A DNA stretch of 64,000 bases from a phage. Positions 39,404-39,458 of this stretch are shown piece after piece. Positions within the stretch are counted from its first letter, which is position 1, and each line of letters begins with the position of its first letter. The notes under the pieces are model-generated. The model worked only from the letters and a program-made list of their open reading frames with translations. It was not told the origin of the DNA and searched no databases. The stretch lies in assembly GCA_014437165.1 (NCBI GenBank), contig GCA_014437165.1_4090.3; one strand, written 5' to 3'. Made by a program: the position numbers and the translations under genes.

Positions 39404-39458
39404 TTGATCAAAAAATGATCTGATCAATACTTGATCAATTTGCGTAAAGTAGTATAAT
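39404..39458. promoter_or_regulatory. cluster of three TTGATCAA-type palindromes (4 GATC sites) overlapping a candidate promoter
   Basis: ATTGATCAAAAAATGATCTGATCAATACTTGATCAATTTGCGTAAAGTAGTATAAT read directly. Confidence 0.45.

Follow-up and report, generated by a model that had tools for sequence, protein, structure and literature searches.

Conserved paired GATC sites over an internal promoter in the terminal repeat of Asteriusvirus phages, a candidate methylation-modulated operator

In a 64,000-nucleotide stretch of phage DNA (contig GCA_014437165.1_4090.3 of GenBank assembly GCA_014437165.1, hereafter the window), we found a compact array of GATC sites which sits between a strong early promoter (P1) and a conserved gene of 48 codons (ORF48), and which overlaps a second, weaker promoter-like site of internal position (P2). 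Positions 38800-40300 of the window are 99.9% identical to Escherichia phage SHEFM2K, 99.8% to PBECO4 and 91-93% to the 121Q clade, which are jumbo myoviruses of the genus Asteriusvirus. We tentatively propose that the array serves as an operator which works at the level of DNA: a sequence-specific protein would bind its heptamers, and Dam methylation would modulate this binding. Of the readings weighed here this seems the likeliest, because the sequence of the repeats, and not just their capacity to pair, is conserved while the adjacent protein is 33-38% identical in other phages, and because the repeats lie on one helical face, overlap an internal promoter in every lineage and occur only together with ORF48. 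The array resembles several known GATC-containing control sites and is a member of no defined class of them, and a description of it was not found in the Asteriusvirus literature searched.

The array (ATTGATCAAAAAATGATCTGATCAATACTTGATCAA, 39403-39438) holds GATC sites starting at 39406, 39417, 39422 and 39433, with spacings of 11, 5 and 11 bp, in agreement with the four sites within about 35 bp of the original prediction. The triple TTGATCAA palindrome which was also claimed there holds only in part, since exact copies occur twice, at 39404 and 39431, the middle site reading CTGATCAA and the fourth GATC ATGATCTG. The repeat unit is the heptamer TGATCAA, present in three copies together with one TGATCT, and the sites fall into two pairs (A and B, Table 1), each of which sets its two members 11 bp, that is one helical turn, apart. 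Because GATC is self-complementary, each 11-bp pair is also an inverted repeat. A comparison by eye with the IHF consensus WATCAANNNNTTR gave no fit, the sites reading G-ATCAA-N4-TGA.

The region of the array is present twice in records holding both genome ends, and in phage vB_Ec-M-J it falls within an annotated direct terminal repeat of 21,525 bp, about 12.1 kb in, so that roughly 12 kb of the repeat lie on one side of the array and 9 kb on the other. Terminal repeats of about 20-21 kb have been published for Asteriusvirus (PMC13070987, PMC11895373), and by collinearity the repeat would cover the window from roughly 27.3 to 48.8 kb. Nowhere else in the window, or in the complete PBECO4 genome of 348 kb, are four GATC sites packed as closely as here (a span of 27 bp against 87 bp for the next), and no other such cluster occurs anywhere in that genome; the second-tightest, at 44244-44331, was set aside as not comparable, because it belongs to a kinase-like coding region. 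If GATC sites were placed uniformly, a cluster this tight would arise with a probability of 0.004 in the window and 0.011 in the genome; with the GATC density of the terminal repeat the value is 0.021, and with the intergenic density there it is about 1e-4. The nearest other sites, at 38941 and 39840, are more than 400 bp away. Genome-wide, GATC in PBECO4 reaches about half its Markov expectation (614 observed, 1186 expected). Across the terminal repeat as a whole it is not depleted (93 observed against 74-105 expected), and there 68 of 82 sites lie in annotated genes, while the 14 intergenic ones include five that form the array and two that fall in an unannotated small ORF. Outside its genes the repeat is therefore poor in GATC, with about one site per kb, and the array is a clear exception, far above the background against which the original prediction had asked for it to be measured. 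One further GATC pair of vB_Ec-M-J, at 10149/10161, seemed intergenic and was rejected, as it really lies in an unannotated small membrane ORF. In the window, a small ORF at 37403-37492 encodes a hydrophobic 29-aa peptide (MKSLAYYSSALVGALIAALLVTYLFFMVI), whose GATC sites look intergenic in vB_Ec-M-J because the ORF is unannotated there.

The two-pair design is found in three lineages, namely the PBECO4/SHEFM2K clade, the 121Q clade and Erwinia phage Hallingskeid. The spacing within a pair is exactly 11 bp in all six, while the gap between the adjacent GATCs of the two pairs varies (5 bp in the window, 45 bp in 121Q and 32 bp in Hallingskeid). The 121Q clade has five GATCAA sites, arranged as an 11-bp pair (CGATCAATAAATGATCA), a single site and a second 11-bp pair (TGATCAATTCTTGATCA) just downstream of the conserved -10. 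Hallingskeid, which belongs to a different phage group, carries the same leader element ahead of two 11-bp pairs (A, TGATCAAGAAATGATCA; B, TGATCAATAATTGATCT), followed by a homologue of the downstream small gene. Between the Asteriusvirus clades the non-coding stretch from leader to ORF48 is 61% identical outside the GATC columns, and none of the 12 bases in the three aligned GATCs has changed. Taking the three lineages together, the GATC core is intact in 13 of 13 sites, and all 13 share one orientation. Moreover, AA follows the GATC in 11 of the 13, compared with 16 of 134 in the background (P ~4e-9, or 2e-5 counting five independent sites), and T precedes it in 11 of the 13, compared with 42 of 134 (P ~1e-4). 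Such conserved flanks call for a sequence-specific reader.

Transcription from P1, which belongs to the repeated early-promoter families D6 and D16 of the terminal repeat and is kept in the 121Q clade, must run through the array, 55-90 nt downstream of its start. The original prediction had pointed to a candidate promoter of TTGATC, 16 nt and TATAAT, and this is borne out: the last heptamer of the array supplies the -35-like TTGATC of P2 for a conserved GTATAAT -10, and the -10 block GTATAATTCT is invariant between clades while the neighbouring bases are variable. In each lineage the array overlaps an internal promoter-like element, in a register that differs: the -35 in the window, the +1 in 121Q and the surroundings of the -10 in Hallingskeid, where the promoter-like site reads TTGACT, 17 nt, AATAAT and the spacer of pair B serves as the -10. 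The window thus shows GATC inside or beside promoter elements as Dam-controlled promoters of the mom, pap, agn43 and IS10 type do, with the site at 39433 in the P2 -35 and three more at most 30 bp upstream. Between P1 and the array stands the leader of about 50 nt, nearly invariant between the Asteriusvirus clades and 87% identical in Hallingskeid, and a second copy of it, without GATC, lies at about 41349-41405. A scan of 38500-42000 against Rfam at E<=1 gave no match, leader and array included. The leader consensus CATAGAAACAA..CTAACCCAyAGGGTGCAyAAATGTAnCT is kept in Rak2-like jumbo phages in several copies per genome (also at 2385-2440 of the Hallingskeid contig L016), the phages concerned being those of Escherichia, Klebsiella, Salmonella, Yersinia, Cronobacter and Erwinia; in IMG/VR the leader search returned only 121Q.

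The original prediction saw only tiny ORFs in the roughly 180 nt downstream of the promoter, and this did not stand, for a conserved gene of 48 codons with a GTG start occupies 39496-39642. ORF48 corresponds to 121Q gp293 and PBECO4 gp253, annotated in these relatives, and its nucleotide differences fall mostly in the third codon position (by codon position, [10,7,19] between clades and [1,2,8] to [2,2,11] within the 121Q clade); it is evidently a real conserved gene. Homologues at 33-38% identity occur in Hallingskeid and in Pectobacterium phage CBB. Among 5.8 billion proteins the search for homologues found only two clusters, both from Asteriusvirus, and an alignment run against IMG/VR and metagenomes found only 121Q, CBB and near-identical contigs. 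The stop of ORF48 overlaps the start of the following TraR/DksA-type zinc-finger gene (TAATG), and the two are, to judge from the sequence, translationally coupled. The array was found only alongside ORF48, with which it forms part of a cassette that the original prediction did not contain, as it did not contain the strong P1. In phAPEC6 this cassette is missing as one block: the upstream 65-aa ORF abuts the DksA-like gene, and a single TTAAAATAA stands at the junction. The cassette is thus a dispensable accessory that is gained or lost as one unit and, being absent from phAPEC6, can hold neither an essential origin nor an essential packaging site. In Hallingskeid (L016, 1914-2342) it lies directly downstream of an HNH endonuclease gene.

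Table 1. Features of the array region, in window coordinates (a dot marks features without a strand)
Feature	Coordinates	Strand	Details
Direct repeat TTAAAATAA, left copy	39302..39310	.	9 bp; end of the upstream 65-aa ORF
Accessory cassette	39311..39642	+	332 bp: P1, leader, array, P2, ORF48; present in PBECO4/SHEFM2K and 121Q clades
P1, early sigma-70-type promoter	39315..39343	+	TTGACA, 17 nt, CATAAT, then ACTTACATCAAG; scan score 11/12
Leader element CAAGACGAGAACGTCACTAACCCATAGGGTGCACAAATGTAACTGTATAAT	39352..39402	+	hairpins GACG-agaa-CGTC and ACCC-ata-GGGT; ends in -10-like TATAAT (39397-39402)
Pair A	39405..39421	.	TGATCAA-AAAA-TGATCT; GATC at 39406 and 39417, 11 bp apart
Pair B	39421..39437	.	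TGATCAA-TAC-TTGATCA; GATC at 39422 and 39433, 11 bp apart; perfect 7-bp inverted repeat
P2, internal promoter-like site	39431..39458	+	TTGATC (39431-39436), 16 nt, TATAAT (39453-39458); scan score 10/12
Weak Shine-Dalgarno AAGG	39480..39483	+	12 nt upstream of the ORF48 GTG; AAAGG kept in 121Q clade
ORF48	39496..39642	+	48 aa; GTG start (TTG in 121Q clade); PHROG family 38664
Direct repeat TTAAAATAA, right copy	39634..39642	.	includes the ORF48 stop; overlaps the ATG of the next gene
TraR/DksA-type C4 zinc-finger gene	39642..39899	+	Pfam PF01258, E 5e-11; PHROG family 54

A possible source of methylation is at hand. The original prediction advised looking for a phage methyltransferase elsewhere in the genome, and PBECO4 does encode one outside the window: gp148, of 173 aa, matches the Dam-family N6-adenine methyltransferases of PF05869 at E 2e-31, is 30-35% identical to enzymes of Stx and T1-like phages, and has an identical counterpart in the close relative SP27. 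Members of PF05869 that have been tested are reported to be GATC-specific. A C5-cytosine methyltransferase, gp416, is encoded as well, and Escherichia and Erwinia are Enterobacterales that bear Dam and SeqA. Since every repeat holds an invariant Dam site, in a genome that avoids GATC and has its own Dam-family gene, methylation would likely modulate the reader of the array. We hypothesise that a sequence-specific protein would occupy the heptamer pairs, the best available candidate being the ORF48 product and otherwise another phage or host factor, and that its binding would tune the level of the mRNA for ORF48 and the TraR/DksA-like protein by occluding P2 and blocking read-through from P1. 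The GATC at the centre of the heptamers would place N6-methyladenine, made by host Dam or by the phage Dam-family enzyme, in the contacted major groove, and methylation would probably alter the binding, so that the fully methylated infecting genome and the fresh hemimethylated or unmethylated copies could be read differently. GATC clusters with conserved flanks that are read by a specific protein, with methylation-dependent binding, are known from the P1 pac hexamers, the P1 oriR heptamers and the RctB sites of Vibrio oriCII. The original prediction offered Dam-sensitive regulation or a dedicated repressor as alternatives; both stay leading readings, and the T and AA flanks suggest that they are combined rather than exclusive.

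A more specific form of this proposal, which we regard as a long shot, is that ORF48 is a minimal AP2/MBD-like beta-sheet reader of N6-adenine methylation in TGATCAA, and that together with the phage Dam-family enzyme it would make an epigenetic timer switching the TraR/DksA-like protein on or off. An AlphaFold2 model built on a two-sequence alignment gives four short strands and a C-terminal helix (pLDDT 86, with 80, 60, 54 and 48 for the other models), a fold that is a lead for possible DNA binding and carries no family assignment. Given this AP2-like lead and the HNH neighbour in Hallingskeid, descent of the cassette from a split HNH-AP2 homing endonuclease is a possibility.

Several observations weigh against the operator proposal or against ORF48 as its reader. 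The site statistics are not fully independent, because the three lineages which hold the array, the only ones that do, share ancestry. In 121Q, P2 has a poor -35 (TGGATC, 3/6) and is not called by the promoter scan. The gp148 match scores 89.6 bits, below the NCBIfam equivalog cut-off of 97, and its GATC specificity is putative. Upstream of the CBB homologue of ORF48 there is no GATC array, so the protein also occurs where the sites are lacking. Furthermore, the AP2-like fold is confident in only 2 of 5 models, and the model of the 121Q-clade protein, though it has the same order of elements, reaches a pLDDT of 57. Foldseek with the ORF48 model found no match in the PDB at E<=0.001, Pfam none at E<=10 for five ORF48 homologues, and a comparison with plant AP2 sequences by hhalign gave a probability of 1.6%; by sequence profile, Pfam and hhalign do not place ORF48 in the AP2/integrase-type beta-sheet DNA-binding family, and a sequence-profile search of the PDB with ORF48 gave no support.

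A serious if rather unlikely rival is a pure Dam/SeqA sensor with no dedicated factor, in which either SeqA dimers would sit on the hemimethylated pairs or methylation of the -35 would alter its use by RNA polymerase, so that the cassette would be switched with replication. The intact GATC in 13 of 13 sites and the 11-bp spacing of every pair speak for it, as do the conspicuousness of the cluster against a strong depletion of GATC, the phage Dam-family gene, and the Dam and SeqA carried by the hosts Escherichia and Erwinia. SeqA favours GATC pairs on one helical face that are less than about 50 bp from each other, at distances of about 10 or 20 nt (PMC2691817, PMC2912659). At least two same-face sites within about three turns are present throughout, in six pairs of 11 bp from three lineages, and in this the array is like the SeqA sites of oriC, P1 oriR and the lambda pR region, where same-face pairs also lie closer than three turns (PMC2691817, PMC2912659). 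Yet SeqA and Dam read only GATC, SeqA needing no flanks, and the same-orientation T and AA flanks that are conserved here would go unexplained, as would the strict linkage to one small gene; the setting is moreover a dispensable gene cassette and not an origin. As for the direct effect on RNA polymerase, IS10 pIN, Tn5 tnp and P1 cre are Dam-sensitive promoters with GATC in a core hexamer, and in the clade of the window GATC does lie inside the P2 -35. In 121Q and Hallingskeid, however, the GATCs lie outside the -35, so direct methylation of that hexamer cannot be the conserved mechanism. The array differs from those promoters in that the position of GATC relative to the promoter changes between lineages, so direct methylation of a core hexamer is not a shared feature.

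The Mu mom promoter is a classical case of the methylation-read kind, and there the host protein that reads the Dam sites is OxyR. The methylation state of the GATC cluster just upstream of that promoter decides whether the host protein represses (PMC3378877). Like mom, the array is a tight GATC cluster at a promoter of a lytic-cycle phage, with a C4 zinc-finger gene after the control region and a GNAT-type gene next in the window. Unlike mom, it has four to five sites arranged as 11-bp pairs with TGATCAA flanks, and an OxyR-like motif is not evident. The zinc finger is of the TraR/DksA type (PF01258) and not Com, and the GNAT-type gene, behind a strong promoter of its own (39906-39933), matches the ordinary Acetyltransf_1 family and not Mom; the parallel in gene order with com-mom was judged probably coincidental.

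It is distinctly unlikely, in our estimate, that the array is a methylation-blind repressor operator with TGATCAA as half-site, pair B forming a 17-bp palindrome and the GATC core being incidental. Pair B (TGATCAA-N3-TTGATCA) does have the form of a classical dimer operator, the flanks are conserved, and two adjacent operators over a promoter are standard phage architecture. For the core of a half-site to be itself the Dam palindrome would, on the other hand, be an improbable coincidence, all the more so where the genome is purged of GATC and encodes a Dam-family enzyme; in dam+ hosts the major groove that is recognised would carry N6-methyladenine regardless.

Quite improbable is an element acting at the RNA level, whereby hairpins in the P1 transcript (GAUCA-N5-UGAUC and UGAUCAA-N3-UUGAUCA) would affect the stability or translation of the ORF48 mRNA, as the 5' hairpins of the neighbouring early cassettes might theirs. 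Hairpins are predicted at both pairs (z = -3.3 for the DNA fold and -2.05 for a 151-nt RNA leader), both pairs lie within the P1 leader in all three lineages, and the neighbouring cassettes carry the 5' stem-loop GGGGAGAAATGGTTCTCCCC. But any two GATCs set at a distance of 11 bp will pair automatically, and the hairpins therefore add no information of their own; they have short, AU-rich stems, the z-score of the leader is weak, and Rfam has no match. There is also no covariation: the stems are identical in sequence across lineages in which the protein is 33-38% identical, which argues for recognition of sequence rather than shape.

That the cluster has no function, being a chance or slippage product of a short AT-rich repeat, is very improbable. 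The array does lie in an AT-rich region, and the cluster alone reaches only P ~0.02 at the GATC density of the terminal repeat, but exact 11-bp pairs recur in three lineages, the aligned GATCs keep 12 of 12 bases amid 61% flank identity, and the element is conserved at the nucleotide level in another phage genus.

Least credible of all, and disfavoured, is a replication origin or pac-like packaging site made of GATC-containing repeats, as in P1 pac, P1 oriR and oriC. Four TGATC(A/T) hexamers in 33 bp do resemble one arm of P1 pac, whose hexamers, four within about 35-40 bp, likewise have roughly one-turn spacing, belong to a phage that encodes a Dam enzyme, and form an extended motif read by protein. 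Work attributed to Sternberg and Coulby, from 1990, is said to have found that the P1 pac hexamers TGATCA/G are cleaved by pacase only when Dam-methylated. P1, however, has two clusters flanking the cleavage region, within the terminase gene and essential, whereas the array here is single, lies 9-12 kb away from the ends of the genome and is missing in related phages. As a P1-type pac site it was rejected both for want of a second cluster (the nearest other GATCs being those at 38941 and 39840, over 400 bp off) and because it lies about 12.1 kb inside the 21.5-kb repeat and is absent from phAPEC6, and so neither at a packaging start nor indispensable. The RctB 11/12-mers of Vibrio cholerae oriCII and the P1 oriR heptamers are phased repeats with a GATC core and methylation-dependent initiator binding. 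The array is like these iterons in its short direct repeats, GATC core and helical phasing, and unlike them in having only two pairs, with no initiator gene, DnaA boxes or unwinding element, and in overlapping a promoter ahead of a gene of 48 aa. An iteron-type origin was rejected in turn: phased repeats are present, but there is no adjacent initiator or terminase gene, and a cassette missing from the phAPEC6-type Asteriusviruses is not essential.

Repeats of related form in other viral contigs are the remaining point in favour of an origin or packaging site, namely the 11-bp-period GATCAA repeats that are probable iterons in a replication-protein-like gene, and the array of TTGATCAAAAAATGATCA units beside HNH and terminase genes on contig L040. 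A pattern scan of IMG/VR for GATCAA-N5-GATC arrays returned mostly collagen-like coding repeats, and the remaining arrays are analogies only, not homologues. Among these, an unrelated high-GC phage (L040, 2817-2911, and L101) has five tandem 20-bp units ATTGATCAAAAAATGATCAG, containing the same 18-mer type as pair A; on L040 they lie between a nuclease-like ORF and HNH/terminase genes and might serve in packaging or as an origin. Contig L025 (about 2134-2170) and about 25 similar IMG/VR contigs have four to eight tandem 11-bp repeats TGATCAATCAG within a replication-protein-like ORF of 290 aa, and these are probably origin iterons with embedded GATC.

The surroundings of the array have features of their own. 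The terminal repeat is packed with small early-type cassettes, in each of which a small ORF with its ribosome-binding site follows a strong sigma-70-type promoter and the 5' stem-loop GGGGAGAAATGGTTCTCCCC. Between about 28270 and 48190 there are about 20 or more near-identical ones, with AAAGTACTTGACA/TTGCAA, 16-17 nt, GTATAAT and TTTACAT ahead of the hairpin. Fused terminator-promoter hairpins (AAAAGGGTTGACTTCGGTCAGCCCTTTTTGCTATAAT) are repeated at 417-490, 4912-4985, 6194-6267, 7608-7681 and 41322-41350, with the -35 TTGACT inside a GC-rich stem-loop that resembles the terminator of the preceding gene. On the minus strand, at about 13500-24200, nine tandem paralogous genes of about 1.2 kb have conserved start regions and correspond to PBECO4 gp286-296, an array of RCC1-like 'regulator of chromosome condensation' genes. 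The ScaI palindrome AGTACT is hugely over-represented, with 257 copies in the window and 891 in the 348-kb PBECO4 genome, about 7.5 times the expectation from base composition; it is densest in the terminal repeat, and only a few dozen copies stand in promoter contexts (AGTACTGnATAAT, AAGTACTTG). Other palindromes are wholly missing from the window and the PBECO4 genome (GCGC, 0 against about 154 expected, as well as CCATGG, CGTACG, AGGCCT and others), and the avoidance of GATC, GGCC, CCGG and CGCG is weaker inside the terminal repeat (about 27.3-48.8 kb) than in its flanks. A tRNA scan of the window found none.

Clusters of Dam sites that work as switches read by methylation occur in a few classical systems (Mu mom, P1 pac and oriR, pap, oriC), and no such switch is known from the jumbo phages of the Rak2/121Q group, in which the regulation of the early regions within the terminal repeats of about 20 kb is essentially unstudied. 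If the array were a methylation-sensitive operator, it would give a lytic phage a simple means to distinguish the parental genome from its replicated copies, and would explain what one tiny orphan early gene out of hundreds does, and what the phage Dam-family enzyme is for. Should ORF48 itself be the timer, a lytic jumbo phage would tell the injected, fully methylated genome from the new copies and thereby control a protein that targets RNA polymerase. And even if methylation were irrelevant, the array would still offer a clean, compact cassette of operator, promoter and gene for study.

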